Assembly: GCA_046563655.1 (NCBI GenBank)
Contig: CM102286.1
Coordinates: 10,540,001 to 10,604,000, forward strand
Origin: Yuukianura sp. NJ FZ-2021
Lineage: Eukaryota
Direction: 5' to 3'
Length of the DNA: 64,000 bases
Under the pieces are notes generated by a model. The model did no database searches. It saw only the letters and a list, made by a program, of their open reading frames with translations, and had not been told where the DNA came from. Numbering within the stretch: the first letter of the stretch is position 1; the number at the start of each line of letters is the position of its first letter. Shown piece by piece: positions 5,041 to 64,000 of the stretch. The translations under genes and the position numbers were made by a program.

Positions 5041-7040
5041 TCAACGCTGGTAAGAACTGAAGAGCCTAAATCTAGGAAAAGTTTCGGTAAACACGTCGCG
5101 ACAAACTTTGAAGTTTCTGAAAATCACGCACTCCTGACCATCGGCACAGTCCGAGTTTCTTGCGCAGAAGCAGGAGTCCATCAGTGCGCAGTGCTGCTCT
5201 TCTGTGCTCAAAGTCAGCTGATTAGACACTCCCGTGACTCTTCTTCCAAAATTGTTCATGAACAGGCCATTCGGGTCGTACTTTTTCAGATACGTCCGAA
5301 ATTTAGCCAAATTTGGAGCACTACGCATGATCATTTCTCTGCTGTGGAACACCGCTCCGTTGGATGACCAGTGAGGTCTCCCGCCATGTTCAAACACCTA
5401 AAAATTAACAAGTTTTGAAAAAAAAGATTGCGGTAAAATTATTCTAAACTATTACTCTAAACTAAGCTTTTTACCAACGCCTGTTCAATTGCCTGGTACG
5501 CTGCAAGTCCCGCTCTGGCAGTGACGTATCTGCGCCTGCGCATTGGTGTGACGATCTCTATATTAAACGTTTCCCGTCCAAATTCAGATGACATCAGGCT
5601 GGTTGCCGGGGGACCAAATTTTAACAAAATGCCAATAAACGGAAAATGTGCTGGATACTGCTCCAGAATGCTTTTGATTGTCTTGATAACTGGATCAAAT
5701 TCTTCAATTGGCATAGAAAATCCGTTCACCACTGGATAAATCCCAAAGTCCCACCCACATTTGCCCGGAGTACAGCGATTGGTTGTCAGATCATGAGCGT
5801 AGCCAATGGCAGGATTCTTAAGCGTTTCTCCACCATCTTCCGAAAAATATGCTTGCCGCTGTGGAACTTTATGATAAAAAGAATACTCCGCCAATCGCTC
5901 CATTGTGTTTAATAAAAGTCGGCTTCTGTATTTCTGCGCAAACTCATAAATGCTTCGAATGACGGTAGCCATCAGTGGTGTGACGTCAAGTATTTGATGT
6001 ACTTTGGCATTCCCCGTGACGTTGACACCCACGTACTTCCCTTTTGAAGCAACAACAGAACGTGTATTCGGGAACCACCAAAATTGAGCCCAATCGAACT
6101 CACGAGCCGTCTCTACCGGAAAACCGCCAAGAAGAACCGAATCTGAAATCCGATAATTCTCAATTTTCATGTTGTACGCCTGTACGGTTCGGAATGTAGC
6201 GTCAACTATGATCCCAAGCAGACCCAAGTGAACTCTAAATGCATCGAGGTCTTCTGGACGACTTTCGTCAATAATCACGGTTTTACCGGTACCGTCAATT
6301 ACTGTCATCCGAATCACGAGTGACGATATCGATACTGGATGAATTAGAGTTGCCCCTCTGACGCCCGTTCCAAGTCCACCACCAACCGTTACCCCACCAT
6401 AAAACAGGAATTGGCCATCTAATGCTCTCCCGCGAATTTTCAATTCCTCAATCAAATCTGCCACGGTCGTTCCCCCTCCGGCCGTGACCGTGTTGGCGGC
6501 GGAATCGAATCGAACGTAGTTAATTCTGTGCATGTCAATTGGAATTCCGTCTGTACAGATTATGTCACTCATGGAATGGAGTGCTCCAAGGGCTTTTACG
6601 GTACTGTTCGTACTAATGGCACGAAAAACGATTTGGCGCAATTCTGCAACAGTGGATGGTCGCTGGATGTCGTGCATACTGGAACAAGGAACTTGCTTTT
6701 GATAATTTGTATAGCAAGTAGCACTGCAGAAAATTCTATAAACAAAAGAATTTTAGAAATAGAGTGATTATGAGACAAATATAATCAAGTCGAACTTTTT
6801 GTTAAATTCCTTTAGCTGAGGAGGAAGAGAAAGACTTAAGAGAAGTCTTAAATTTTAAATGTGAACTTGCATATACTCGCTTCGCTACTTTGTTTGGAAT
6901 TTGCAATTCATTAAAACACAAAGCTAGAATATTCCAGATCCAATTGAAAATAACTTACTATAAACTTAAACTTACTTAGTATTGTGTAGTTGTCCCAAAA
7001 TCAACACTATTCTTAATTTTGTAAACGAAAATGTCACCAT
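5041..7040 (-). CDS. Plant-type L-gulonolactone oxidase-like flavoprotein, copy 2 (exons 7040-6976, ~6723-5475, 5397-5041)
   Basis: GALHS, GGRPHW, YDPNGLF and CALMDSCFC..C..C tail. Same three-exon structure as copy 1, with a 65-nt first exon. Confidence 0.88.
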
Positions 7041-8197: not shown

Positions 8198-11100
8198 ATG
8201 GCAACATTTTCGTTGACACTTTTAGGAATAGTCTTGGTCTTGGGACTAGTCTAAGTAATAATACACAGTGTGTGTCCGGGGGTGACTAAAGGTCGGAATT
8301 CTGCTGACTCCTCGGATTTGTATGAGGGGTGCACGCACACTATCAATGTGCGGACTTTACTAAACAACAGGTTACGTTTAGCACAACAACTCCTAACCTG
8401 TTCCTACGCATTGCAATGTAACTTACAAAAATAAATAATAAATGTATACCATAAAACACAATGTCCGTCAGGCTGCGAAGGCTGACGTACACTTTACACT
8501 GAGTCATTGTACTGTACCAATACTTTGGTGAGTACAAAACTAATTGTATCACACTGGATGCCAATTCAAAAATCAAATAAGTCTATAGTTTGCTAACTAA
8601 CCTAACATATAACCCTACTTTAATTCGATTATTATTAGGTTAGGCAAAAAAAAATCACACAACTTCGGGAGGGATACAACCAGGTGATGCTACCTTGAGT
8701 GTAGAGGTTTTAGCATGACTATACCTCTGAAGAGAACTTTTCCTCTGAAAGAGGGTTTAAGTGCACATTGTACAGAGTCATTGTTCTCTTTCATTTCGGT
8801 TTGCCTACTTATTGTATCCGTAAGCATGTAAAACTCAAAAAATGTACGTTTTGCAATTAAATACCTAATACCTAACCTGCACTACTCCTGCTGGCTTATA
8901 GTCTTCGTGCGGAGCAATCTATACCACATTACAAAATCCCCTTAGCCCTTTGCCGTTCGGTTGTCCTCTTCGTGTGTGAGTGGTGTGGCTAAAGGTCGAA
9001 TATCGGACTCCTCTGATTCATCATGAGAAAGGCGCACACTCTTATCTTTCCAGTTGGAGCAAAAAATACAAGGGATGGGATGCGGCAAAGCGGAATTGCA
9101 TCCGCTGTATCCTTGCGAAGGGTGACTGCGATATTTTTGTGGCGACTTCGTCCGTCAATCCAACCTTTTGATTTGCAGTGATGCAAATTCGTGTGAGAGG
9201 GGTCTGGCTAAAGACCGCATCGCTGACTCGAGCGAGGAAGAAAAGGTTTAGGTTTAGCAAAATCTGACAAAAGCTAACCAGTATTGCAACAAAATTTCAA
9301 ATCGGTAGTTTCGGAGAATAATTAGTAGTAAGTAGAGGGAATGAGCATGTCAATCTCAAGACATGGCTTAATTTCGGCCCCGGTTGAAAAGGTGATGGCG
9401 CCATAAGACCTCATTAGTTTAGAGCAAGATTGGAACTCGGTTGACGTAAGATTAACAACGGTGTATGTTCCCACCAACGGATTATTTTTTTGAAGGGGTA
9501 CTTAACGGTTCTGATATTATTTCTTTGTCCAGTTAGTCCGTCAATCAGGTTACATACGAAATCCTCGAGCCATCAGCGCCCCCGCCAGGGGGCGCCATGG
9601 CTCGTAAACAATAAGTAAGTTTACCGCAAATTTTGGAACTAGATTTTGAAAATTCTAATTTTGCATTTTTGAAAAATAGGAAAACTAAAAAACGTAAACA
9701 ATATAACATTTTTTGGATAATTTTATGCAGAGCTGCTACTTATACAAATTTTCAAACGGAAGCTGCTTGCTACAGTGCGTACGACATCCAGCGACCATAC
9801 AATGTGGACGAATTGCGCCAAATCGTTTTTCGAGCCATCAGTTTAAACAGTACCGTAAAAGCACTTGGAGCACGTCATTCCATGACTGACATAATCTGCA
9901 CTGACGGAATTCCAATTGACATGCGCAGAATCAACTACGTTCGATTCGATAATGCTGCCAACACTGTCACGGCCGGAGGTGGAACCGCCGTGGGAGATTT
10001 AATAGAAGAATTAAAAATTCGCGGTCGAGCTCTAGCTTGCCACTTTCCCTCTTACGGTGGAGTGACGGTTGGTGGTGGACTTGGAACGGGCGTCAGAGGG
10101 GCAACTCTAATTCATCCGGTATCGATATCGTCACTCGTGATTCGGATGACAGTAATTGACGGTACCGGTAAAACCGTGATTATTGACGAAAGTCGTCCAG
10201 AAGACCTCGATGCATTTAGAGTCCACTTGGGTCTGCTTGGGATCATAGTTGACGCTACATTCCAAACCGTAGCTGCTTACAACATGAAAATTGAGAATTA
10301 CCGGATTTCGGATTCGGTTCTTCTTGGCGGTTTTCCGGTAGAGACGGCTCGTGAGTTCGATTGGGCTCAATTTTGGTGGTTCCCGAATACGCGTTCTGTT
10401 GTTGCTTCAAAAGGGAAGTACGGGGGTGTCAACGTCACTGGCAATGCCAAAGTACATCAAATACTTGACGTCGAACCGCTGACGGCTACCGTCATTCGAA
10501 TCACTTACGAGTTTGCCCAAAAATACAGAAGTCGGCTTCTATTAAGCACAATTGAGCGTTTGGCGGAGTATTCTCTTTACCAGCAAATTCCACAGCGACA
10601 AGCTTATTTTTCGGAAGATGGGGGGAAAACCCTTAAAAATCCTGCCATTGGCTACGCTCATGATCTCACAACCAATCGCTGTACTCCGGGCAAATGTGGC
10701 TGGGACTTTGGGATTTATCCCATCATAGCGTCATTTTATGTACCAATTGAAGAGTTCGATGCTGTTATCAAGTCAATCCAAAGCATTCTGGAGGAGTATC
10801 CAGCACATTTTCCGCTTATTGGAATTTTGTTGAAATTTGGCGCCCCGGCAACAGGCCTGATGTCGAATGATTTCGGACGGGAAACGTTTAATATAGAGAT
10901 TGTCACACCAATGCGCAGGCGTAGATACGCCACTGCCAGAGCGGGACTCGCAGCGTACCAGGCAATTGAACAGGCTTTGGTAAAAAGTTTTAAAGTTTAG
11001 AATAATTTTACCGCAATCTTTTTTTTTCAAAACTTTTGAATTTTTAGGTGTTTGAACATGGCGGGAGACCTCACTGGGCAGCCAACGGAGCGGTGTTCCA

Positions 11101-11404: not shown

Positions 11405-11742
11405 AAGGAAGTGATATTAAAATACCGTACAAGGTCATCTGGACTTAATTTGTAGTTGAATCGTAATTGTTAACACTTGACAGTGATTAGAACAACGCCA
11501 CAGTAAGATGGAGTGTTTTCACATTTTTTGTGTACCCAATGCAAACATAAAAGCAATCATTTTTTTATCTAACTCAATGTCAAGGTCATGCCTGCGCATA
11601 AACACTTATTTATTTAGTCAATTGTGTGGTATAAATACTATGGCTTCGGTACAGTAAAAATTTCTAGTGTCTCTTACCTATCACTTGAAACAACACACTG
11701 TTAAAATTAATACAACATTGAAATTCCTTTAGCACGATAGAA

Positions 11743-13470
11743 ATGTTCATTCTCTTTGTGGTTATCTTGTTTCCCATTTTATTTCTCATTTTGTTGCAGC
11801 AATATTTGAATCGGGACGCGAATTACTGGAAGGAGCGTGGGGTTATTAGCCTAGAAAATGGAACGCAGATATCCTCCTTCTTTAACGTATGGAAAGATGC
11901 TAAGACACCAGTCGATGCCGACAACGACTTGTACAAAGCCCTTGGAGACGAAAAGTATGGCGGCAGGTTTGAATTTGGAACGCCAATGCTATTCGTAAAG
12001 GATTTGGACATAATAAAGCAACTCCTGGTAAAAGATTTTGGACATTTTATGAATCGGAGAGACTTCATTGACACGGATCCCCTGCTATCCAAAGCCTTAT
12101 TTTTTCTGCGTGGTTCAGAATGGAAAGAAGTCAGAACATTTCTGAGTCCTACTTTTACTTCAGGCAAAATCCGAAGAATGTTTCATCATTTCGAACGCTG
12201 CAGCCACTCGTTGAAGCAGTACATACTGAAGAACAGCCCAAAATGTTCGAGCTCTGGCAGAGGGGAGAACGGGTATGAAGTCAATGTATATGACGATACA
12301 AGACGCTTTGCAGTGGATGTTATTGGAGCAGCGGCGTTTGGTATGGAAACAGACGCTTTGAAGGAAAAGGATTCACACTTCTTTGCACAATGCAAAAAGA
12401 CATCCATCTCAATTCCATCACGACTGCTGAAATTTGTAGTGTTTTCGTTTTACCCGCGACTTGCAAACTTCTTCAAGGCACAATTCTTGGAAGCACCATT
12501 GACGGAGTACATGGTAGGACTTCTGCGTACATCCATCTTAACACGAGAAAGTAACAGTTCGGAAGGAAGAGACGATTTCCTTCAGCTGCTAATCGAAGCT
12601 AAAGCAGAGGACAAAACAAATTTCGAATTTACCACTGATTTGGCAGTTTCGCAAGCATTCAGTTTTTTAAATGCTGGGTAAGACTAAGCTCTTTTTAATA
12701 AGGCCTTTGTAATACAGAAGTATGAAAGTTTACAAACTGAATGTCGGACATTGCACGCTGTTCGGAATTGGTTGCTAAACTGAATAATTTACTTCAGGTT
12801 TGACGCAGTAGCCGGTACAATTGCGACCTTGACGTACATACTTTCTGTACATCAAGATATTCAAGAAAAACTGCGTGATGAAGTATTAGGTGCCTTGATA
12901 AACGAAAAGGTTACATATGAAGCTGTGAACAAAATGGAGTACTTGGATATGGTTGTTTCAGGTTAGCTCCAAGCATGTCATAATCGTTGACTTTGAGTTA
13001 ACTTTTATTTAGGAAATTCATTTAGTTTGGATAATTTTTTAGAAATGCTGAGAATGTATTCGCCAGCTCAACGATTGGAGCGTAAATGTGCAGAGGAGTA
13101 CGAGATGCCTGGCGCCAATTTCAAAATTCCCAAAGGAATGATGGTGGTGATTCCAATAGACAGCATCCACTACGACGAGAAGTACTATCCGAATCCCCAC
13201 CAGTTTATTCCTGAACGTTTTTCAGCTGAAAACAAAACCGCAAGAAATCCATATACGTATTTACCATTCGGCACTGGACCAAGAAATTGTATCGGAATGC
13301 GATTTGCTTTGGTCGAAACCAAAGTTGCCATTTGCCACTTGCTGCTCAACTTTCATCTGCGTCCAATCCCGGGAGTGACGCCAGTTCCGATACGAATGTG
13401 GAAAAAGTTTGGATTTACAAGAATCCACGACGATTTGAAGTTAGAATTTATTCCGCGAACTGGAAATTAA
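11743..13470 (+). CDS. Microsomal cytochrome P450, clan 3 (CYP6/CYP9-like); exons 11743-12677, 12798-12961, 13043-13470
   Basis: N-terminal membrane anchor, WKEVR C-helix, LSPTFTSGK, EMLR (ExxR), PERF and heme motif FGTGPRNCIG. Intron phases are consistent. Confidence 0.93.
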
Positions 13471-50226: not shown

Positions 50227-51339
50227 TACTTAGGTGATCTAGGATGTGTTTCAGAAAATGTCGATTTTGAGGGAGAGTGTTGATTTTAGAGGTCAAAATT
50301 CGATCTTTTTTCACATAAAGTGAGTTGACATGTTAACCTAACCATAGGCGTTCTCACATGAAGTTTATGTGACAAATTAAGATTAGAAAGAACAAATTCT
50401 GACATCTCTGATTTCAAATTTATTGTTAAGGAGACCCTTAAGTCCTCAAGTTTCTTTTTAGTCTTGAAGCTTCCGGATTGTTCTGGAAGCTTCGGTCAAG
50501 TTCTATCGAAGTTAACAAAAGAAGGATTGCGAGTCCTGGACAGTCGACAGTCTTTTCTGACAGTCTTCCTAACATCAACCTAAAAGAACGCATTCTCAAA
50601 GTCTCTTTCTAAAATCTAAGATTTAACTTTTCCCTTTTGAAATATTAAATCAGCAACTAAAACAAAAACAAAAAGATAAAAGATCCATCAGTGAAATATC
50701 ATTTATTTGAATTCCACCACAACAGTACTAACGCATACTATACCTGGACAGGCACTTCCTACAGCTCAGTTACAAGTTACTATATTACAATTCACAATGT
50801 CTACTACAATAACAATCGGCTAATGCAACAACATAAAAGTTGTCGTAGCGCTCGCTGTAGATGCGACACAGTGCGAATTCTTGACTTCGTATTTAGTATG
50901 GGGGGATAGGTACAAGCTTTACGTCCCTGCTTACACTTGTAAAATATTTATCTTTCAAACTCAAACGTGTGCCTTCTCTCATCAGGCAATCAAATGCCCT
51001 CATCTCGGGATTGCCAACCTAATTTCGACCTACCAAATTACAACCTAATTTCGACCCTACCGATGTGGAAAACGAACTCCTCCAAAGCAGCACCTCCTGT
51101 CTCCTAGTTCAAATATAGCTCATACAATTCGACTCGGTTGTTTTGTGATTGACCTCACTTGACCTTCCACGTCTTCCGCCTATATCGGTAGTGCGGCGTA
51201 ACCATTTAGCCGCAAACCGAACATTCTTCGCATTTAGATTTCCTCTCAGTGATCCAGTGACTGTCACCCAGTGACCCAGTTCAGTTCAAGGTCAACCTAG
51301 TAACCTCTGACCTGTCCATTAACCGTGCCACTCTTCCCC

Positions 51340-51990
51340 ACTTTGTGGGAGCAAGTTACAAGTTACGCCGCAGCTCCGGCTCCTCCATTTTCTACGCCTT
51401 GTCGACGACGCCCGCTTCGGCTCATAAACGTTCAACGTCCTGGCTACGCCGCCCCACTGGCTCGACCATGGGTTCTTCCGCAACTGCTATGCTGCAACAA
51501 GCGGAGGCCTCCTCAATTATCTGGATCGTGTCGCCTGAGGTTAACGCACCTCATCCGAAATTTACGCCCTACGTCCCGACTAAACCAGCCTCAGCCTGCG
51601 CTATTCTCTACGCCGTGTGCCACTACGCAACGTCGGAACTCCGTCCGCAAGGACATACATGGCCTGGATCTTCGGGTTAGGTCACCCCCTCCGCCGCCGT
51701 ATGCATCCTCTCCGTTTCTGCGCCCTGACGACGACGCCCACTCAGGCTCAATGAACTTCTACGCCCTGGGAGCTCTGTCCGCAAGGACACACATACGCCT
51801 GCATCGTTTGGTGAGGTCACCGCTACGCCGAAGCATCCATGCTCGTCAGAGTCTGCGCCCTGCGTCGCGGGACGCCGGACGTAGATCGTCCGGTGAGGTC
51901 ACCCCTTCTCCGCCGTACCCAACCTCTCCGGTTTTGGGCCCTCTGCGCTCTGGACACTACATCCCCGCTAGTCTCTGCGCCCGCTCGTGA
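51340..51990. repeat. GC-rich degenerate tandem repeat
   Basis: Recurring GTCCGCAAGGACA(T/C)ACAT, AGGTCACC and TCTACGCC motifs. GC content is markedly above the flanks. Confidence 0.55.
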
Positions 51991-52249
51991 ATATGTTAAC
52001 CTAACCTAAGGAAAACCTTGCTTTAACCTTCATATTCTGTCTTACTCTTTCACCTCATGTCAATTTCCACATTCCCAATTTTAGACCTAAGACATACATT
52101 TAGAGGGAGCTAATGATCGTTTACACCTTTGGAAGGCTTTCCTCAGTGTACACGAGATGGCGGAAAGAGGTGACACAGCCGCGGTTTGTTTCAACTACAC
52201 CGTTCACCGTGTGCTTTGGTAGAGTTGCAAACCATTGAGAAAAAACTTC

Positions 52250-53295
52250 CAAATTTTTTCACGTTTTCCAGTCTTCTTTGATACATTTGGCGGATGAATC
52301 ATGCACACACTTTAAAAGTGTGACTACAAGTCTCTTAATTAAAACCTTTTTTTGTCGGTTGTTCATTTAACATATCGACTAAACGGTGACACCACTTGAA
52401 GAACAATTCAACCGTCTTCGTGTTAACCATATCTTATGGTCAGGAGTGGATGTTCAGTGATATAACCAGTGATTGATTAATTCCTGTGGCACAGGTTATG
52501 ACCTAGTTGGGACTTTATAGCTCTCACCCTATATCAGGATGGAGCTCAAATTTCGAAATTTGGAAAAGTTTTTACACTCGCCAAAGTAAAGTTTCGTTTT
52601 CTCCCTGAAAACCTCCAACATGTCAATACGTTTATGTGTGAGGCATCGATACAATTGTCAATTGAGAAAGCTGCAATCCCTAAGAATATTGAAGTTAATC
52701 ATGAAGGACGAAACTATGTACTCCAAATGGATACTGAAGCACAAAAAAAAGTTTGATGATATTCAAGCATCTCTCGAATCGAGCGAACAATATCTTTCTT
52801 GTTTACCCAAATTAAGTGAAAAAAACATTAAAGAACTTTCTAATGATGTGAGTAATTATAACATTAAAAAGCAATTAACCAATTAAAAAATGACACTTGT
52901 CCAGGTCTTGATGGCCTCACAAGCGAATTTATTTTAAAATTTTGTGACGAATTCTCGGAAATCTATTTTTGGTTATGGAAACAATCTATATGTCAAAACG
53001 TAATGCCTAAGAGCATGCGTGCTGGCGTACTCAATTTAATTTATAAAAAAGGAAATCCTAACGAACTTTCTAATTGGCGTCCAATAATTTTGTCAAGTTG
53101 TGACTACAAAGTTTGCTCTACCATATTTAAAAGTCGCATTTAAAATGTTATAGCTAGTCTAATTTCTCCAGCACAAACTTGCAGTATCCATGAAAGAAGT
53201 AATTTTGATAATCTTCATTTTGTACATGAAAACGTAAATAACGCCACCACAGGCGCGTTTCTTTCAATCGATCAAGAATCTGGTTTTGATAATAT
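52250..53295 (+). mobile_element. L1/Tx1-like non-LTR retrotransposon ORF2 remnant, cut by the Gypsy LTR
   Basis: Frameshifted peptides GDHH (endonuclease end), CPGLDGLTSEF, LIYKKG..NWRPIILSSCDYK, LISPAQT and LSIDQESGFDNI (RT domains 0-3), ending exactly at the LTR. Confidence 0.85.
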
Positions 53296-53520
53296 TGTAA
53301 CGAAGTCGTTGACCTTTCGGTTACTCATCTTATGGTAAACTCATTTTCATAACTTTTGCGAATTGTAAAGTTAGCATGCAAAAACATATTGATTGTTATT
53401 TTACATTGTGTAAACTTTGGGCCCATAATGTAGCCAGTCCTAGTCTTTTGAGAGAGTTTAGAGGTCGTGAGAGGTCAAGTTCAGCCCCAGTATCCGGTTA
53501 GCGTAAGGCTAACCGTGACA
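53296..53520 (+). repeat. 5' LTR (225 bp) of the Gypsy element, followed by a primer-binding site
   Basis: TGTAAC...GTGACA termini. Perfect stem CGGTTAGC/GCTAACCG at 53495-53515. TGGTGGACGAGCC starts 2 nt downstream (53523). No second copy was found in the window. Confidence 0.75.
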
Positions 53521-53591
53521 AGTGGTGGACGAGCCAAGTTGTGTTTTGTCTAAAAAGTTAGATTAAAACTGTACAGTACTCAGCCTTTTGC

Positions 53592-54452
53592 ATGTCCGAA
53601 GAAGAAAGTTCTTCAGAAATGGCTACAGCTAATGTAACTAGTGACCTTAAGAATGTTTTAAGGTCAATCCCTAAGTTCAATGGAAAAACGAACATAGAGT
53701 TGTTCTGTGCAAGATGCGATGCAGTGATCGCAGCAGGTCAGATTGACACGAGGTCAATTATCCTGAATTTCCACTTCCTAATTGAAGGAGAAGTCTAAGA
53801 TTGGTGGAGTTGGACACAGTTAAAGTTCATTAAGGACTTAACGGCCCTTAATCGTGACCAAAAGTGGACAGAACTGAAAGCGGCTCTAAAAATGTTGTAC
53901 GAGCCGGAGTCAGTTCGTAAAGAAGCTAAAACCGCTTCAAAAACAATTCGGTTTACTGACTGTGCGTCAGCGGGTGAATACGTCACCAAAAAGTTATGTT
54001 ACTTTGGGATTATGAATCCCAATATGAGCGATGAGAACCAAGTTGAAAAGTTAATTAAGGGATTACCTGAGAACTTGCGGAACATTATGTATTGTTCAGA
54101 ACCAAAAACAACGGCTGAATATTTGCAAAAGTTGCGAAAATTAGATAAGCCGACCAGTAATGTGATGAAAGAATTCACATTTAAATCACAGAACACTGCT
54201 AGTAACAGTCATACTAGAAAGGTTGTCGAGAGTTCGTCTCGAACAACGTCCTGATAAGGATGATCGTCGTCTAAATCGGTTAAGCCAAATGGATGTTTCT
54301 ATTGAAAGGAAACTGATTACTTACTAAACTGATTACTGATTACTTAGGACTGTCCAAAGTGTCCTTATAAAAGAGAACCGAAAAGCTCAAGTTCAGTGAT
54401 GAATGTCACAAGTGATGTCACTGATGATGTAGTTTGTTCAAAAAACCAGTAG
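53592..54452 (+). pseudogene. gag: Gypsy gag with premature stops and a degenerate CCHC knuckle
   Basis: IPKFNGK, ..LIKGLPE.., GCFY*KETD...DCPK. Ends at TCA AAA AAC CAG TAG. Confidence 0.8.
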
Positions 54453-54479
54453 AGAAAGTGGAGTTCTACCACTTTAAAA

Positions 54480-56076
54480 ATGGAACAAACACCAAAACTA
54501 GGTAGTCAGATTTGTGATAAGATCACAAATGTAAACAAACACAAAAGTTGTGTTGAAACAGCTGATGTTTCATGTTTAGTATTAAGTCCTATTCTGCGCA
54601 GGTCAGGAGGGAAATCTAGTGCAAAAGTCAGAAAAAGTTCTAAAATTGCAAAATCAGGGCCGTACACCTCAGTTGAAGGACAAAAGTTGTCAGCTTCATT
54701 TAGAGATAGGCGTATTGGACCCAAAATAGTTACTGAATTTTTGATCAGTGGATCAAAATTCAATATTCGAGTTGATGAGGGCAGTAACATAAGTGTTATC
54801 AGCCCTGAGTTCTTGTCAAAAGTGACAAAAGCTGTACATAAAAGTTATGCAGTGCCGACACTGACAGTGCAGACGGCCCTGCAGAAAATCCAAATTTCGG
54901 AGTTCGTTGAATTAAAAGTAATTCACGAAGGTGAAAGTATCCTGTGGGGCTTTCACATTATGCCCGGATTTTTAGAGGAGATTTTGTTAGGAACAGATTG
55001 GACAACAAGGTCCAAATGTTCAAAATCTCAAAATTCAAGTCCAGAAATCGGCGAAAGTCTAAGTGACACAGTTCCCGATTTACCAAATTCAGATGAAATG
55101 TCAAAAGGTCAAGTTGAAAATCCTGTGTGGAAATTCAAATTAGTCGAGTCAGTTACGCTACCTCCGTGGAATTGCGTAAAATTAAAAGTTCATTGCCCTA
55201 AGTTAGTTTCAGGTTCGGTTGTGATGAGTCCAAACCGAGATTTACAATTTGAATATATGTTAATGCAGCCGTATGTGTACGCTGTCATTAAAAATAGCGA
55301 GACGGACCTGTGGGTCACTAACCTGAACAGAGTTCCGGTTACAGTCAACAAAAACACCACAATTGCTACTGCGCATGCGTGCGCAGAAAAAGCTACAGTA
55401 ATGGTTCTAAGTGAACAAATGGAAGAATCTCAAGTCAAAATTAGTCCCAAGGTCAAGGGTGACCTTCAAGTTAAGTTGGGGGAGCAGTTGACCCTCCATG
55501 AAAAGCGGGAAATTTTGAAAATATTAGAAGATTATTCGGATGTCTTTGTGACAGACGAATCAAAAGTTGGTAAGACCAACTTAGTTAAGCACAAAATAGA
55601 TACAGGGGATCATCCGCCTGTCCCACTTGTACCATGCTTCCTTTGTGGAACGGGGTAGGATCAAAGAGAAAGTACAAGATTTGTTCAGGGCCGGCATTGT
55701 CGAAGAGTCGACCTCGCCATGGGCCGCACCTGTGGTATTAGTACCAAAGAAAGATGGAACTTGGAGGTTATGTTGTGACTTCCGGAAGTTGAATTCCATC
55801 ACAAAGAAAAATGCATATCCTTTACCAAGGATGGAAGATGCATTAGATAGATTGGGCGGAGCCAAATATTTTTCAGTTTTGGATTTAGTCTCTGGGTTCT
55901 ACCAAATTGAGGTAGATGAGCAAGACAGAGAAAAGACCGCCATTGTAACACCAGATGGGTTATACCAATTTAGACGTCTTCCAGTGTGATTATGCAATTC
56001 ACATTCGACATTCCAGTATTTGATGGATATTGTTCTATCAAAATTAAAATGGTCCAGTGTCTTAGTGTACCTGGAT
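54480..56076 (+). pseudogene. pol: Gypsy pol 5' part: protease, dUTPase-like spacer, RT up to YLD
   Basis: Frameshift near 55627. TGA at 55987 replaces the G of the usual P.GL motif, and the frame continues LCNSHSTFQYLMDIVLSKLKWSSVLVYLD. Confidence 0.9.
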
Positions 56077-56396
56077 TGTGGATGTGTATTATTCAAAGTA
56101 TGATGGGTTGGTGTTGGATGATATTAATGTGAGGGGGCTTTCTGATGAAGACAAGATACATTTGGTGGATTTGGATTTGCCTACGAACATAAATGTTCGT
56201 TATCATGTTGCTTATATCCCTGCGAAATTCCCTCGAATATTCACTACTAACTTGAACAAGGTTGAATTTTTTGCTTGTAACAATGAGGCGCAAAAAAAAG
56301 GCTACTTGGAATCGGGTGAGCTTTCATACTTTTTTGAATGATTTATACACCCGCCCAGTTGAGGTAGTTACAATTGATGATGAGATTCATGAATAA
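56077..56396 (+). other. rep: Endogenous CRESS-DNA virus Rep fragment (C-terminal SF3 helicase)
   Basis: YDGLVLDD (Walker B), IHLVD..NINVRYHVAYIPAKFPRIFTTN (motifs B' and C). After a frameshift in an A-run it reads KATWNRV..DEIHE-TAA, with AATAAA overlapping the stop. Confidence 0.8.
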
Positions 56397-56404
56397 AATG
56401 TTTA

Positions 56405-56970
56405 TTAAGCAGGGAGCTGCTGTTGTCTAACTTGAAAGTAGTGGTATTGTTGTAAATCTAGTTTTATAGTAGTAAGTTGTTTATAATTTTCTTGAATTGA
56501 GAGGTCTAGTGCTGCTGTTATGTCCGTCACACCAAGGAGTAGGCCCCCGTTGGATTCGTATTCAGCTACGGGTGCGACGTTGTTGTTTAGTTGAGTCCAA
56601 TAGTGGGGGGTCCAATTGTTGCCTGTCCATTTGGAAACATTTTCCGTTCCCCACCAGCTTTTGTATTGTCGTGGGCATTTAAATGTGAATTTTTTAGACC
56701 GCCCTATGCCAATTTTTTTGACTCCATTGTTTTGAGTCCAAGTCCGGGGGTCGACGGATTCTGGGGTAGAATAGCGTTGGAGAAAGTCAACATGAATTGG
56801 ATGGTCCCTGTGTTGGATGATTTGGGTTGGCGCTTCGAGTCCTTTTTGGTCGTTGAGTTTGTATATAACTGAGGTGATCTCAACTGGTTTGACGACGTAG
56901 GTGGAGCCTGTGTATCTCATCATCATCCAGTTTTGAGTTTTTGTGAAGAGGATGGTTCTGGTTTTGATTG
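56405..56970 (-). other. Endogenous CRESS-DNA virus capsid-like ORF fragment, convergent with Rep
   Basis: Open, intronless 173+ aa frame ending 8 nt from the Rep stop with its own AATAAA. Beta-rich composition (GVKKIGIGRSKKFTFKCP, TIKLDLQQYHYFQVR). The assignment rests mainly on position. Confidence 0.6.
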
Positions 56971-57007
56971 TAAATGTAAATGTAAATGTAAATAGGACAA
57001 CATTTTA

Positions 57008-57376
57008 TTGGTACGATTTAGAACAATTCAGTGTCTATTATTGGACGTTAGTAGAAAAACAGCAGCGGAGAAGATTTTCTCAGAGTATTCTTGGATTGAG
57101 TTTAATCAAAGTCAACAAGAGTGGGAAGTTTATTTGGGGAGACATTTGGATCAGTTTTTCAAAGATCGAATTTATCGAGTGATTGAGTTAATTGAAGAGT
57201 ATTCTGACGACGACGACAGTTACGAAGAGCACATTAGCTACAAGTTTCGTGAATGTTTAGAAGACTGGCGGTATAGTTACATTGACATTGAACTTTCAAA
57301 TTTGAATTCAAGCCGAGCTCTCATCAATCCAGTGTTGTTTGACTACCACTTCACCGTTTATGAATCCGAATCATGA
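57008..57376 (+). other. Densovirus NS3-like ORF fragment
   Basis: Acidic/aromatic ORF directly upstream of and overlapping the NS1 (57360) and NS2 (57373) ATGs, which is the ambidensovirus layout. Confidence 0.5.
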
Positions 57377-58776
57377 GCCAAATGTAGACGCCAGAAGCCC
57401 CAATCCCTCCAATCGCTCCGTCTACGAAAATCGAAGTCTGTCGAAAATTTCGAGATCCAAGCGTCGAGCTCCTTTGGAAACTCACGATTCAACACCAAAA
57501 AGACGCGATGGGTACATCTCATCGGATTCCAGGGACGAGGCTCTGAGTATGATGACGCTACCTTCAAGCAACATGTACAATCCTTCACAGAAGATGTCAT
57601 TGCCACATGCCACTCAAGATGCACCCAAGGATTCAGACTTTGACGCCGACAACAGCCACTTCCATGTCGTCTTCAAGTATTACCGAGGATCCCGAGTTTT
57701 TGAACTCTGGAATCATTGGATTAATCGATTCAACTATTACTTCAAGGCCAGCGACGTCTCGAATGTCGAGCGCCTCCGAGAATATTTACATCGCGGGGAG
57801 GGACGGGACATACTATACGAAAAAGCTAACTACGTCCCGGACTACATCCCACGTGACACTGGATTTCAGCGTCTCCGAGCATCCAACAGTAAGTACCACT
57901 TGACAATTATATTTTCAAACTACTTTTTATGATTGTCTCTTGTTACTTTCAGATTCAATCAGCGAAGTTCGGTCCGAAAATTAGGCAAGTGAAAGCCCAA
58001 ATTCCGAAGGACCACCCAATTCTCCAGCAGTTGATGAACTTCAGGGATCACACTTGGCAACAGTCATGGAAGGACGTCAAGGTGGAGACGCACCAAAAGG
58101 TAAGCGTCGCGTCGTCTTACTATCGACGATGATTGAAAAGTACAAGCCAGAGACATCTCTTGAATTTATTCAAGCAATTCAAACCTTAGGCACCAGATTT
58201 GAAAAGGATTTTCTTCAATACAATAACGTTTCAAGCCAGTTTTCTTATTTACTAGATACTCAAATTTACAATAATCATCTTCAAAACAAGTAGACTCCTT
58301 GGCTTTCTCTTATTGAAACTTGTCCAATTGATGCTCTTTCCATTCGAAAAAATTTATTGTCAGTTGAAGACACTGAAGGATGGCTTCTTTCAATTCTTGA
58401 ATTTAATTCAATTAATCCTTTTGATTTTGTGTCTACAATTTATGAAGTTATGGATAGACGTAAGCCTAAAAACAATACAATTTGGTTTAAAGGTCCTCCC
58501 AATTGTGGAAAGAGTCTGATTGCAAATTCAATTGGAGATAGTTGTAGTTATGCTTTTCGTGGGGATCAGCCTGACCCACGTGAAGCTAGGTTTGTCTTTG
58601 CAGGCTTAGCCACAGCACGTGTAGGGATTATGAATGAATTTCGAGTTTATAGTAATACTGTAGATAAAGTTTTACTCATTCTTGAAGGAGCTGACGTAAT
58701 TAACGACGTCAAATGTAAACAAGGCGTAAACATTCAAAGAACTCCAATTATTATTACAACAAATGGAAATGTTTGG
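57360..58776 (+). other. NS1: Endogenous densovirus/parvovirus NS1 with overlapping NS2-like frame (57373-58132) and a 64-nt intron at 57889-57952
   Basis: HUH motif SHFHVV, EYLHRGEGR, Walker A GPPNCGKS, Walker B IMNE, motif C PIIITTN. Two in-frame TAG stops. Confidence 0.9.
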
Positions 58777-61053
58777 AGCCCTACTTTTGAAGTACACCAG
58801 CAAAGGCTGTTGACGGTCCTGCAGAGGCTAAGAGATGCCAACTTAACTTTGAAAAGTTCAAAGTGTAGTTTTGGAGAAAGCAAGATTAAGTATCTTGGTC
58901 ATTTGATTTCTGCAGACGGAATCGAAGTTGACCCTGAAAAAGTTTCAGCAGTGACGAAATTTTCAGTGCCGTCAAATCAGACCCACATTCGTTCTTTTGT
59001 GAACATGTGTGGTTATTATAGGCGTTTTATCAAGGATTTTGGTAAAATAGTTACGCCACTGAATTTTCTTTTACGTAAAGATCAACCTTTTGTTTGGGGT
59101 AAAGAACAGCAAAGTGCGTTTGACACCCTAAAACTTGCATTAGTTTCAAGCCCTATCTTAGCGTTTCCGTTAGAAAACTGTTCTAACGAAATTCATTGTG
59201 ATAGTTCTGGATATGGAGTTGGCGCGACATTGGTCCAAATCCAGGAGGGTAAGCCCAAGGTCATTGCTTATGCTAGTCGTAGCATGACAGACATTGAAAA
59301 ACGATATACGGCAAGTGAGCAAGAGTGCTTAGCTGTCGTATTCGCAGTTCAGAAGTTTAGGCCGTATGTGTATGGTACACATTTTTCAGTGCTCACTGAC
59401 CACAGTGCGCTAAAGTGGCTATTTTCTGTCAAAAACCCACATGGTAGGTTAGCCCGTTGGTCGTTCTTGCTACAGACGCAAGATATGACGATTATTCATC
59501 GTGCGGGTAAAGCGTCTAACGATGTAGACCCACTGTCAAGATATCCAGTAGGATCGGCCGAGTCTGTGGATTCGTCAGACCTACTACTGGTTAAGTGCAC
59601 TTCAAAAAGTAAACAAAGTGAAAGTGAAATTCAATCAGTTTGTAATTTCTCTCATTCTCAAGTTAAGTCACTTAGTGAGAAAGTGTTAAGTGAAGTGTTG
59701 TCATTGGAAGGAGTCAACATGCAAGTTCAGCAGCAGCAGGATCCTTGGATTCGAAAGATTGTGACTTTCATCCAAAATGCTGAAAACAAAGTGAAACAGT
59801 CGAAGAAACCTCCAGTGAAACACTTAGACGACTTCAGTTTACAGAATGGAGTTCTGTATATTGCTAATTTTGAAGAAAGTGAACGTTCGTGGAGATTAGT
59901 TCTTCCGAAAAGTCTTCGGAAAGACGTTCTGAAGTCGATACATTCAAGTGACCTAGGTGCTCACTTAGGAATGACAAGAACATGGATTTTGGTAAGATCT
60001 CGTTTTTATTGGCCTGGTATTTATCGTGACACCAGAAGATTTGTTCTAGGATGTCAGATTTGCCAAGTACATAGAGTTAGACGAGGTCAAGAATATGGAA
60101 CAATGCAAGATTTCGAAGAGGTCAGTAGTCCCTTCGAAAGAGTAGGCGTTGATTTCATAGGCCCTTTTGTAGCGTCACGTGGTAACGCAAATAAGTATGC
60201 GTTAATCATGGTTGATCATTTTAGCCGTTACGTAGAGTCCGTTGCTGTTCCGAATGCGACAGCAGAAGTAGTAATTGACGGAATTGTGAATAAGATCATT
60301 TTACGGCATTCGTTGCCAAAAGAGTTCGTTTTGGACCAAGGGAGGCAGTTCACTGCTAATTTAGTGAAATTAGCAAAAGAAAAGTTAAAGTTCAAGGTGA
60401 ACTTTACGTCCCCTTACCATCCTCAAGCAAACCGATTAACGGAAAGGTGCAATCAGACCCTTAAGATGTCGATTGCAAAACTTACAGAGCCTGATCAAGC
60501 AAATTGGGACAATTGTTTAAGTTCAGCTACTTTCGCGTATAATGTAACGCGACAGGAAAGTACTGAATATAGTCCATTTTTTTTAGTCCATGGTAGACAG
60601 CCTAGACTGCCTATAGACATGGATTTACCAGTTGATGAAACTGTAGAGGTTAGGACACCGTTTCCTAAAGAGTTAATGGCTGCTAGGTGCAAAGCCATTG
60701 TTAATTCTAGAAGAGCTCATGAGAAATCTAAAGTTAGATTTGACAGGAATAAGAGAGATAGTCCTTTTGTCATAGGTGACAAAGTGTTAAGAACAGTACC
60801 GACAATTAAGAAAGGTTTGTCCCAGGCATTTTTGCCTAAGAAAACAGGACCATTCGTCATCGTGAAAAAAGTTTCCGATGTAAATTTTCAAATTAACGCA
60901 TTGTTCGGAAAGAGAAAGAAGCCATTTACAGTTCATGTGAGGGATTTGACCCCTTACTACAGTGATTTTGAGTCAGACTCATCATTTACATCTGCAGAAA
61001 TAAGTTCCAGATCGAACGAAGTCACTAGTTCAAGTACAAAAAGTTGTACTTAG
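58357..61053 (+). CDS. Chimeric 898-codon ORF: NS1 SF3 helicase fused to Gypsy RT C-terminus, RNase H and integrase
   Basis: Continuous frame ..RTPIIITTNGN-VW-SPTFEVHQQRL..KCSFG..YLGH. Expression is not demonstrated. Confidence 0.75.
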   Translation: MSVEDTEGWLLSILEFNSINPFDFVSTIYEVMDRRKPKNNTIWFKGPPNCGKSLIANSIGDSCSYAFRGDQPDPREARFVFAGLATARVGIMNEFRVYSNTVDKVLLILEGADVINDVKCKQGVNIQRTPIIITTNGNVWSPTFEVHQQRLLTVLQRLRDANLTLKSSKCSFGESKIKYLGHLISADGIEVDPEKVSAVTKFSVPSNQTHIRSFVNMCGYYRRFIKDFGKIVTPLNFLLRKDQPFVWGKEQQSAFDTLKLALVSSPILAFPLENCSNEIHCDSSGYGVGATLVQIQEGKPKVIAYASRSMTDIEKRYTASEQECLAVVFAVQKFRPYVYGTHFSVLTDHSALKWLFSVKNPHGRLARWSFLLQTQDMTIIHRAGKASNDVDPLSRYPVGSAESVDSSDLLLVKCTSKSKQSESEIQSVCNFSHSQVKSLSEKVLSEVLSLEGVNMQVQQQQDPWIRKIVTFIQNAENKVKQSKKPPVKHLDDFSLQNGVLYIANFEESERSWRLVLPKSLRKDVLKSIHSSDLGAHLGMTRTWILVRSRFYWPGIYRDTRRFVLGCQICQVHRVRRGQEYGTMQDFEEVSSPFERVGVDFIGPFVASRGNANKYALIMVDHFSRYVESVAVPNATAEVVIDGIVNKIILRHSLPKEFVLDQGRQFTANLVKLAKEKLKFKVNFTSPYHPQANRLTERCNQTLKMSIAKLTEPDQANWDNCLSSATFAYNVTRQESTEYSPFFLVHGRQPRLPIDMDLPVDETVEVRTPFPKELMAARCKAIVNSRRAHEKSKVRFDRNKRDSPFVIGDKVLRTVPTIKKGLSQAFLPKKTGPFVIVKKVSDVNFQINALFGKRKKPFTVHVRDLTPYYSDFESDSSFTSAEISSRSNEVTSSSTKSCT

Positions 61054-61539
61054 AGTAGTGATGCAAAATAGTGCAACTAGTAAAACGGACAGTGTTAGTT
61101 ACACAAAGTCCAGTACCTCCAGTCAAGGTCAGAAGAGTTCATACAGGAGGCAGTTGCCTATAAAAGTAGTTCCTGACATTGATTCTAGTTCATTTCCAGT
61201 TCAAAACCCTGACGGTGCTGACGACGAGTCGTTTGAAGAAGTTCAACTCAGAAGGTCAACAAGAGTACGTAAGGCACCGAAACGCTATGGTTGGTCCAGC
61301 GAAGAAAACTGACAGTAAGTTCTGGACTAAGGTATAAGTACCTTCGGTTCATGCACAGTCGCCTGTGTTCAATTTTCGAAATTGGAAGTTAGTTTGTAAG
61401 TCACTTTGTAGGAATTAGTAATTTATATTATTGTATCTTCAGAGAGGAGCAATTGGCTCTCCTCAACATCGGTCCAGATGACGAAGAGGAAGTTGATTGG
61501 GATTTAGTCAATGGCAGTAGTAACCACTCTGTGGGCGCT

Positions 61540-61731
61540 AGTAAAAACAAACTTGACCTGTAGGTCAAAACATGTAAACATGACCTACTTTTCGACACCC
61601 AACTTTTGTCAGTGCAGGACACCCAACTTTTGTCAGTGCAACTGCACTGACAAAAGTTGCACTGTCTGCGAGTAAAAACAAAAACAAAAACAAACCTGAC
61701 CTACAGTTCAAAAATGTAAACATGACCTAGT
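61540..61731. repeat. Local duplication plus perfect 17-bp hairpin
   Basis: AGTAAAAACAAA..TGACCT..ATGTAAACATGACCTA twice, ACACCCAACTTTTGTCAGTGCA twice, and inverted arms at 61624-61640 and 61643-61659. Confidence 0.8.
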
Positions 61732-62339
61732 TGCACTTTCAGAGTGCATGAGAAAATGATGATCTCATTTCTTCTCCCAGTGGAGAAGAGTATACGAGAG
61801 TAATCTTAGTTTAGCCCGTGGAACTGAGATGGGACCTTTCCATCACAGTTTTACTGGCTAAACCATGGTTTTTGGGAGGTGTGGTTTTTGAGAAAGTGAG
61901 ATGCATCCCCCACTCCTCATTCCCACCCTGATGTGTCTTTACACAAAAAGCAGTTCTTCTAAAGCTTGGAGCGCGAGTGTTCCAGAAGTTAGTTTTTTTC
62001 TGTGTAACTTCACCATCTCATTTCTCATATCCCACCATTGAGTTTATGAGTTTTGTGCAGAAAAAGATTAAACTAACTTTTGGAACACCCGAGCCAGAGT
62101 GCGAATATGTCATAGGTGAAAGCAGAAATGTTTAAACAAAAGTTTCATCTTTGACAAAGTAGCATGTGCAATGTATCAATTTGTTATGACACTTAATTTT
62201 TATGACTTTCTTTCGCATTAATCAATACCCTGTGTGGCATCTTTGGAAATTTTGGTATTCAAATTTAGTTTAGTTGTTGAGCTTACAAATCAAAGTGTTC
62301 CAAAAAAGTTAGAACAAAAATTCGAAAACAATGACGGTG

Positions 62340-63718
62340 ATTTGTGGAATATGTCTTGTAGACATTTTGGAAGATGTGAGCGATGTGTTGTGGGCGATTT
62401 AGTGCTCACACGTATTTCACAAGTAAGTGAAAAATAATTTCTGAATATTTTTGATTCATTTTCAAAAAAAAATTTCTATGTTGTTTTACAAAAAAAAAAT
62501 AATTCTTTCGCTTGTTTTGAAATTCGTTATCTTTTGTTGTTTCAGACGATGCCTCCTCATTGCAAATCAATCTTGGATATATCGAAAAATTGATAAAGGA
62601 CGTGCGAAGGCAAAAGCTGAGAAAAGGCCTTACGTCAAACCTGAAAAATTCGAGTAAGTTTTTTTACCATACCATTTACCATATTCTTAGTAATAATTGT
62701 AATTTTGTATTTGTTTTTAGACCGCAATGTCCATTGTGTTTAACTCCGATGGAATTTAACCCGGAAACGAGCGAGACTTCTCCGTCCGTGGCTGGGATGA
62801 GGATTATTTTGAGCGAAGATGAGACGCCAAGACCAAGGTAAAATTTCGAAAAATTAAGCCCTATTAATTAATTAATTTGGTATATGAAGTTGAATGTTGT
62901 CTGTTTTGATTAGAACTCCACCACTTACCCCGCCACCCCCACCGCCCCCACCCACTGCACATGCCTCGACTTCGACAGGTTCAACATCCCCGTCACTTCT
63001 GGAATGCAGGTAAGTATTTTATTTTGTAAGAAAAAATTCGGCTTACAATTTTAAAACTAATCTTGGTTTGTAAAATTTCTTTTTGTTTTTTAGATGTATC
63101 AGCAAACAACCAAACTACTGCGAGTTGGTTGAAGAAAAAGTCAGGCAGCAGCGAATGAAAATTTATTCCGAAAAAAAACGTGCGGATGATGCCGAGGCAG
63201 TTCTGACAGATGTTTTGAGCCAAATTCCGCAACGACAAACCAACACTGAGGAAGCTGCACCGAATCAACATAAGCGACGGAGGACAGATTCCGATTTGAA
63301 CCGAGCTAATCCTGGACCGTCACGGAATTTGACCCCGACAACTGCAGGACCGTCACCTAATTCTTCACAGCCGACTGCAGGACCATCACGGAAATCGCTT
63401 CCGCCAAGTTCAGGACCGTCACGGTTGCCAACTGCAGGACCGTCACGGAACTCGGTCCAGGCAACTGCAGGGCCGTCGCGCAATCCACCAGAGCCGACTG
63501 CAGGACCGTCACGATATGTAGTGAAGCCGTATGCAGGGCCGTCACACAATCCAACACAAGCAACTGCAGGGCCGTCGCGCAATACAGCACAACCGGCGGT
63601 AAGAAATGCAGAATGTGACAACTCTGCTCGACAACTTCAGGTCAGATTGCGACGTCTGACACAAGAAGAAGTTGACTCGGTCTACATTGATTCCGGGGAG
63701 GAGGAGGCGGACCATTAG
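62340..63718 (+). CDS. Multi-exon uncharacterised gene with CxxC motifs, a polyproline stretch and a TAGPS repeat tail
   Basis: Short GT-AG introns, CERC and CPLC motifs, and a final exon with nine GPS-centred repeats (mostly 33 bp). The start was not located. Confidence 0.55.
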
Positions 63719-63861
63719 TTTATGCTTTATTAAATTTTGAGTAAAATATTTTAAAACAAATTTCAATTCAAAAAAATCTGAAAAAGAAACTGTTAATATG
63801 CTAAGACAATAAGCTGTGTATTACTTGGGATGTTGAGTTTTAAAAAAGTTTCAACACATCT

Positions 63862-63975
63862 ACCACCACCACAACCACCACAACCCCAAGAAACACCACC
63901 ACCACCACCACCACCACTCCCAACAAACACCACCACCACCACCACTCCCAACAAACACCACCACCACCACCACAA
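63862..63975. repeat. (CCA)n-rich microsatellite
   Basis: Interrupted CCA/CAA runs. Confidence 0.9.
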
Positions 63976-64000
63976 TCAGTTATAAACAACCTTTTAAAAG

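Follow-up and report, generated by a model that had tools for sequence, protein, structure and literature searches.

How did a fragment of a CRESS-DNA virus, spanning the point where two convergent genes end, come to be part of an animal genome? The question is raised by one segment of the window, by which we mean the whole stretch of 64,000 nucleotides analysed here. The initial annotation had delimited the fragment as 56077..56970: its left edge, 56077, is exact, but the viral insert continues to 58769. The annotation also missed the setting. The CRESS piece, 892 nucleotides long, is the left third of an insert of 2,693 nucleotides (56077-58769), in which it is followed by a TGTAAA repeat and by a piece of parvovirus NS genes, and this insert takes the place of 8 bases at the YLDD motif of the reverse transcriptase of a Ty3/gypsy element. 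What is notable is the two-virus insert as a whole, together with its resolved empty site, and not the junction that had been highlighted. The host element has the following parts:

53436..53520, plus strand: remnant (3' end) of the 5' LTR, then a primer-site-like TGGTGG; 86% identical over 85 nt to the LTR end 14 kb downstream, past the right edge of the window.
53521..56076, plus strand: gag, protease and 5' half of the reverse transcriptase (Pfam), with several stops and frame breaks, ending in ...LVYLD.
58770..61053, plus strand: 3' half of the reverse transcriptase, RNase H and integrase (Pfam RT_RNaseH, rve, Integrase_H2C2), open and in frame with the cut NS1.
61516..64000, no strand assigned: a later insertion with terminal inverted repeats of ~450 nt, reaching to 66799 past the window; 89% inverted match between 61516-61964 and 66383-66799.

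The Pfam matches of the left half are Retrotrans_gag (E 9e-4), gag-asp_proteas (E 9e-3) and RVT_1 (E 2.6e-14). At the insertion point, eight of the nine related loci in the genome, which are ~70% identical, read an uninterrupted LVYLDD. On the right side, the cut NS1 helicase shares a frame of 919 open codons (58294-61053) with the reverse transcriptase thumb, RNase H and integrase. The inverted-repeat insertion splits the third ORF of the element. The 5' LTR is cut, the downstream LTR leads into the gag of another element, and the pair is too damaged for dating or for recognising a target-site duplication. Another contig carries a young relative whose gag, pol and third ORF are laid out in the same way and whose LTRs are 99.4% alike.

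Each of the two viral pieces occurs once in the 98.7-Mb assembly. Four public runs, X1 to X4, from two samples and two studies, also contain the stretch and were compared over 53000-62000; the one that covers it best, X1, may be the assembly's own sample, and no RNA dataset is listed among the public runs that contain it. The empty element is visible in X1 and X2, where a joint leads from 56076 to 58770, skipping 2,693 bases, with 8 other letters in between. Depth in X1 is 279 on the empty form versus 55 on the insert, so several insert-free copies exist there. Contigs of the parent type differ from the window copy by ~4-5% (19/473, 26/538 and 15/301), and no close family member other than the chimeric copy was found in the assembly or, as judged from depth, in runs X3 and X4. 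Record 11 of X2 bridges the left joint, in one study only, and record 6 of X1 reaches 30 letters across it, one below the threshold; the inner joint is bridged by record 6 of X1, record 13 of X2 and record 21 of X3, and the right joint by record 22 of X3 and record 29 of X4, so that these two joints are each bridged in two studies. The insert alleles differ from the window by 0.3-1.8%: at 9 of 2,751 positions in X1, 13 of 1,785 in X4, and 16 of 932 or 27 of 1,535 in X3. Two deletion alleles are present. In X3, one contig of depth 3.75 lacks 189 bases between 56264 and 56454, including the whole termination zone; in X4, a contig of depth 33 lacks 3,740 bases between 53420 and 57161, from gag to the end of the CRESS piece. 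Since the empty element is seen and all three joints are bridged in public runs, the insert is no artefact of assembly: it is inherited, polymorphic and decaying.

The features of the insert itself, in order, are:

56077..56396, plus strand: 3' end of a CRESS-virus Rep, with SF3 Walker B, B' and C and a C-terminal tail; 46% identity over 68 aa to the Rep of genome L013, 68 bits with a profile.
56392..56407, no strand assigned: convergent termination zone read from the sequence, AATAAA on the plus and on the minus strand back to back, each overlapping a stop.
56405..56968, minus strand: probable capsid gene, 3' 187 codons, 5'-truncated and without stops, so named from its open frame, its position and a weak Atlas lead.
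56969..56993, plus strand: (TGTAAA)4.2 tandem repeat at the joint of the two viral pieces (TRF, 100% matches).
56994..58769, plus strand: parvovirus-type NS piece; Pfam Parvo_NS1, E 4.6e-21, above the cut-off; best PDB match AAV Rep, E 3.5e-10.
57889..57952, plus strand: predicted retained intron of 64 nt, GTAAGT...TTTCAG, with stops in all three frames and supported by register.

Which virus left the Rep piece? The helicase motifs lie in the frame 56066-56338. The Rep stop at 56394-56396, given by the initial annotation, is present, but it ends another frame, the two being separated by a break in the A run 56292-56299; the frame of the tail aligns by eye with the C-terminal ends of related Reps. 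On its own the tail, which is short, has no significant BLAST match (best E 0.21), and the Rep piece alone has no Pfam match; comparing it with longer proteins in a word-indexed search gives nothing either. Viral contigs, when scanned, yield one relative, the circular 3,073-nt IMG/VR genome L013 (IMGVR_UViG_3300020030_001703), whose Rep matches with E 3e-17. A search with that Rep returns 41 proteins at E<=1e-10, and the window piece itself matches 34 of the 41 at E<1e-5. With the profile A2, built from 12 of these relatives, the Rep piece reaches its 68 bits (E 3e-20); three circovirus-type helicases reach 7-19 bits, and in the window's own parvoviral NS1 the profile finds no domain. Among 72,556 PLSDB plasmids, tblastn finds no match to the Rep piece at E<=1, nor to a full-length relative at E<=0.01; algal plasmids are presumably absent from this set. 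Judged by its sequence, the piece belongs to an SF3 helicase of CRESS type and comes neither from a parvovirus nor from a listed plasmid; the initial annotation had proposed a CRESS Rep and named grouping with parvoviral or plasmid Reps among the outcomes that would speak against it.

The phylogeny that the annotation called for goes part of the way. In a tree of 105 pieces of ~67 aa, built with no family-labelled references, the window piece falls with like-type pieces in a group of 100 tips, with support 0.44, and sits on a long branch; it is not placed in a family. The family of the CRESS donor cannot be set, the nuclease half being missing, for the piece begins just before Walker B. Relatives carry that half: Viral_Rep (PF02407) is found in 27 of the 28 members of alignment A1, and weak Gemini_AL1_M matches in 13 of the 28. 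On its motifs, with weak backing from these Gemini_AL1_M matches, the piece may be a 'geminivirus-like helicase'; PMC6668415 grouped Reps of this kind with geminiviruses and genomoviruses, CRESSV6 and Pyropia plasmids. Of four relatives checked, one is named 'Cressdnaviricota sp.' (AXH76870.1). PMC5923481 reports that 71% of unclassified CRESS Reps are chimeric. With L013 and the AXH76870.1 cluster the window piece shares the SF3 helicase type, at ~27-48% identity over 50-85 aa, and with L013 also the convergent AATAAA/TTTATT junction. Unlike these relatives, it has a long-branched helicase, no nuclease domain, and a capsid-like ORF that is unrelated to theirs. An inherited insert with a helicase related to those of unclassified CRESS genomes agrees with the annotation's suggestion that a probably unclassified CRESS lineage is linked to this host.

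The zone where the two genes meet reads as the annotation described it, two convergent stops overlapping back-to-back AATAAA signals. The plus-strand TAA at 56394-56396 is enclosed by AATAAA at 56392-56397; on the minus strand the stop, at plus letters 56405-56407, overlaps TTTATT at 56401-56406; the gap between the hexamers is 3 nt. An AATAAA followed by a TTTATT at most 15 nt away arises in 96 of 20,000 shuffles of the piece, and a pair within 15 nt occurs twice in the 64-kb window. To see how common the arrangement is, we surveyed 81 related loci, of which 69 are distinct and have a readable Rep stop, and 37 of these have a convergent frame of at least 120 codons; this detection is crude, as linearised circles can conceal a convergent gene. 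Both hexamers lie near the Rep stop in 13 of the 37 loci with a convergent frame, versus 3 of the 32 without. In 9 of the 37 they stand head to head at most 15 nt apart, as in the window, and in intact CRESS genomes such as L052, L053 and L038 the zones are almost the same as the window's. The back-to-back junction is therefore ordinary CRESS-virus anatomy, common in related genomes, and sharing it supports a single CRESS donor for the Rep and the minus-strand ORF. The same helicase type is paired with convergent ORFs of 450-520 codons in L036, L038, L043, L047, L052, L061 and L102.

The annotation had argued that no single normally terminated mRNA could have been the template, and this holds: the CRESS piece crosses both poly(A) signals, extending past them by ~315 nt in one direction and ~560 nt in the opposite one, which excludes such an mRNA. 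It overrated the junction, which is common among relatives, and for DNA viruses capture from a DNA template is the norm (PMC6455143). The value of the junction, not rare by itself, is to be one of two marks of a template other than mRNA.

What does the minus strand encode? A fully open frame of its length, 187 codons, appears in 0 of 5,000 shuffles: it is a real frame and not a product of chance. That it encodes a capsid is probable and rests on its position. In the ESM Atlas, all ten listed clusters are viral and nine of them contain ssDNA-virus capsid families (scores 0.87-0.90); the clusters mix parvovirus, smacovirus, gyrovirus, circovirus and microvirus types, and with a recognition of 2013 (<2300) they are a lead only. 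Searches of Pfam, of PDB sequences, of a word-indexed protein set restricted to similar lengths, and of viral contigs return no match. Neither do relatives supply one: the best E against 547 ORFs of the 81 related loci (tblastn and phmmer) is 0.25, and the best score against 11 profiles of their non-Rep ORF families is 1.5 bits. The sole phmmer match among 1.84 billion representatives, a PKD-repeat protein with E 4e-4 summed over six stretches, was judged to be chance. The jelly-roll capsid expected by the annotation thus receives the weak Atlas lead but no fold: two single-sequence AF2 models have pLDDT 29 and 27, too low for a fold reading, and a Foldseek search with the first, uninformative at pLDDT 29, gives nothing at E<=0.001. 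A circular genome carrying both ORFs, which the annotation had suggested looking for, was found neither in viral contigs nor among the 81 related loci.

The piece of the other virus comprises an upstream 126-codon ORF, NS1 with the HFH motif region and an overlapping NS2-like frame; the NS1 SF3 helicase is cut just past motif C, and there are two stops in the NS1 frame. To judge from that helicase, the donor of 56994-58769 is of parvovirus type. The length of the predicted intron would bring into register both the flanking NS1 frames and the NS2-like frames, so that one putative intron would serve both. The piece is an internal NS fragment with no terminal hairpin; it has no relative in viral contigs, and the ESM Atlas gave nothing useful for the N-terminal exon of NS1.

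How, then, did the two pieces enter the element? Two independent marks, the crossed poly(A) signals and the retained NS intron, point to a template that was not mRNA, and both viral pieces were most likely copied from DNA. LINE-type retroposition was discarded because none of the joints carries a poly(A) tail; integration led by Rep or NS1 at an origin was likewise discarded, as neither piece has an origin or a terminal hairpin. We consider it fairly probable that the insert is a two-virus endogenous element that arose when end joining closed a chromosome break and captured two viral DNAs; the weights that we give to mechanisms are matters of judgement and not of computation. A germline cell would have carried a CRESS virus and a parvovirus, their DNA replicating in the nucleus. 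One chromosomal Ty3/gypsy copy would have broken and lost 8 bases, and end joining would have taken in two fragments in succession, one from within the parvovirus NS region and one from the CRESS virus, across the meeting point of Rep and capsid, with slipped synthesis of the repeat at the joint between them. The insert would have killed the reverse transcriptase of that copy and decayed neutrally afterwards, possibly as a source of antiviral small RNAs.

End joining fits the loss of 8 bases, the two captured fragments and the repeat filler; multi-fragment capture at a break by this route is documented in yeast (PMC1976456), and PMC6455143 states it as the route for integration of DNA viruses. 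Three observations weigh against it. Rep, NS and pol are co-oriented, which copy-choice predicts and which chance gives one time in four; retrotransposons, to which the target belongs, make up a minority of the genome; and no allele of this locus with the element but lacking the insert is seen, as the contigs do not place the empty form of X1 and X2 at any locus. Nor could microhomology be counted at the junctions, the donor viruses not being found in viral contigs.

The co-orientation leads to the main competitor. It is possible, if rather unlikely, that the element's own reverse transcriptase jumped to a parvovirus strand, then to a CRESS strand, and back to the element 8 bases further on, and that the parent integrase inserted the cDNA. 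The substrates, equally tentative, would be plus-sense unspliced RNA or ssDNA of the parvovirus, and Rep-sense virion ssDNA or read-through RNA of the CRESS virus. All three pieces are co-oriented and inside an LTR element, as this account would have it, and slippage of the reverse transcriptase could account for the short repeat at the inner joint. In Aedes cells, the nearest endogenous viral element (EVE) has the same polarity as the LTR for 543 of 614 LTRs (bioRxiv 10.1101/127498), and hybrids of RNA viruses and Ty3 elements arise in this way, with no need of homology (PMC6797480). The usual partner of such switches is cytoplasmic mRNA, however, which would be spliced and would end at poly(A) signals, and both pieces differ from this: they do not fit a template of viral mRNA or genomic RNA, while unspliced or read-through RNA is compatible. 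Three switches would be required, with a return within 8 bases.

Virion polarity enters here as well. The nonanucleotide ANTATTAC does not occur in 56077-56968, which is what one would expect of a region facing away from the origin. Three close relatives, L013, L074 and L075, were checked, and all carry the origin stem-loop on the Rep-sense strand; that strand would then be the packaged ssDNA, which a reverse transcriptase might copy. Across the 37 convergent relatives, however, polarity is mixed and that of the donor virion uncertain: a nonanucleotide-like match lies on the plus strand only in 8, on the minus strand only in 8, on both in 5 and on neither in 16. Strand skew gives no guide to polarity, its median being near 0 in 34 relatives.

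A bolder version seems doubtful to us: a Ty3/gypsy reverse transcriptase would have copied two co-infecting ssDNA genomes by successive switches and carried them into the germline in one step; the resulting immune memory of two viruses would have been retained while other copies of the element turned over; and a spliced helicase of the same CRESS lineage, at the locus L032 described below, would have been domesticated in this host lineage as well. If this were true, retrotransposon-driven capture would extend from RNA viruses to the virion strands of ssDNA viruses.

The other alternatives question the pieces themselves. The minus-strand ORF might come from the parvovirus or from a third source, the termination zone being a coincidence or a fourth joint. 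We hold this to be unlikely. The top Atlas cluster and several others are indeed parvovirus capsid clusters, and the ORF resembles no ORF of the related CRESS loci. But the zone nearly copies those of L052, L053 and L038, its two halves have in common a plus strand rich in G+T, in which the parvovirus piece differs from them, and CRESS capsids are swapped freely and may show no detectable similarity (PMC7493932).

It is less likely still that recombination between the two viruses, inside a co-infected nucleus, came first and that the hybrid was captured as one fragment by either route. CRESS viruses and parvoviruses both replicate in the nucleus as ssDNA with HUH nickases, and the chimeric Reps of PMC5923481 lend the idea some credit. 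The inner joint, however, cuts the capsid-like ORF mid-gene and sets it back to back with NS, an arrangement that would make no working virus, and no such hybrid was found in viral contigs. Finally, an assembly chimera of host and contaminating viral reads, for which one could cite the single copy in the assembly and the possible identity of X1 with its sample, can be discounted: all three joints are bridged in short public contigs, the alleles have diverged and have their own deletions, and the viral frames have acquired stops and a frame break.

On the preferred reading, end joining at a break, both viruses were probably present in one cell. Under any reading, the locus is a base-resolved fossil of the germline entry of non-retroviral DNA viruses, with the empty site, three joints and several alleles visible, and one population test could thereby separate break repair from template switching. 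It links to one animal host an unclassified CRESS lineage with an orphan capsid-like ORF and a parvovirus with apparently spliced NS genes.

Several known systems resemble it in part. Like endogenous circoviral and CRESS elements, the piece is a germline fragment of a Rep-encoding circular ssDNA virus; unlike them, it is fused to a parvovirus piece in an LTR-retrotransposon reverse transcriptase, and its empty site is known to the base. Few elements combine rep with cap; 362 chordate genomes yielded four cases (Dennis et al., bioRxiv 10.1101/207399; Kinsella et al. 2020, PMC7493932). Carnivore CRESS elements have been amplified by retrotransposons to 10-20 copies, whereas the window insert is single copy. 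An isopod genome holds circovirus-like and parvovirus EVEs (Theze et al. 2014, PMC4231630), but these are separate, nearly all with a single ORF, and were judged not to be transposon-made. The EVEs of Aedes in Ty3/gypsy and Pao elements (bioRxiv 10.1101/127498; PMC6797480) are, like the present insert, viral fragments embedded co-oriented in a transposon-dense region; their donors are RNA viruses, whereas here the donors are ssDNA viruses and both pieces lack mRNA features. The densovirus EVE in a piRNA cluster of Diaphorina citri (review PMC9962485) lies in an arthropod genome and is, like the NS piece, parvovirus-derived, but it involves one virus and its small RNAs were shown, whereas the window insert joins two viruses. 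CRESS and parvovirus EVEs are thus known in animals, and both in one crustacean genome; of two ssDNA-virus families fused in one LTR element, no report was found in the mostly open-access literature searched, and tables of arthropod EVEs could hold similar cases.

The only other match to the window's helicase type in the genome is a single-copy locus, L032:801-1803 (G000:C3:5800629-5801631). There an exon with Walker A precedes an exon with Walker B, B', C and an RR motif, all motifs being intact; an apparent GT-AG intron of 397 nt, in phase 0, lies at L032:1095-1491, and more open frames are found upstream. In the tree L032 is the sister of the window Rep piece, with support 0.76 and long branches. 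Its sequence suggests that it is possibly a domesticated viral helicase, and if it is real, the CRESS lineage met the host line more than once.

The host element and its neighbours offer some further observations. The third ORF after pol has a CCHC zinc knuckle beyond gag's own (G000:C4:10606800-10607766 and G000:C8:6486050-6486787), and the gag that adjoins the downstream LTR is that of a related element. Several of the indels that break the gag-protease-RT half are absent in X3, so they may be recent or specific to a haplotype. The inverted-repeat insertion, 5.3 kb long (61516 to G000:C4:10606799), belongs to a multi-copy family, and a contig of X2 without it joins 61515 directly to the sequence beyond; it contains an intron-bearing ORF with 33-nt coding repeats (63074-63715) and a minus-strand frame (65547-65888) that by eye resembles a BIR-type domain. 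Directly left of the cut 5' LTR, 52600-53300 holds decayed frames that look by eye like the reverse transcriptase of a non-LTR retrotransposon, and 51200-52000 is a GC-rich patch (55%) with internal repeats. At the far left of the window, 2161-3513, 5460-6752 and 9615-10997 are three long-exon paralogues of an FAD-linked gene resembling arabinono-lactone oxidase, with Pfam FAD_binding_4 and ALO on the first, and they adjoin a cytochrome P450 gene at 11722-13467.
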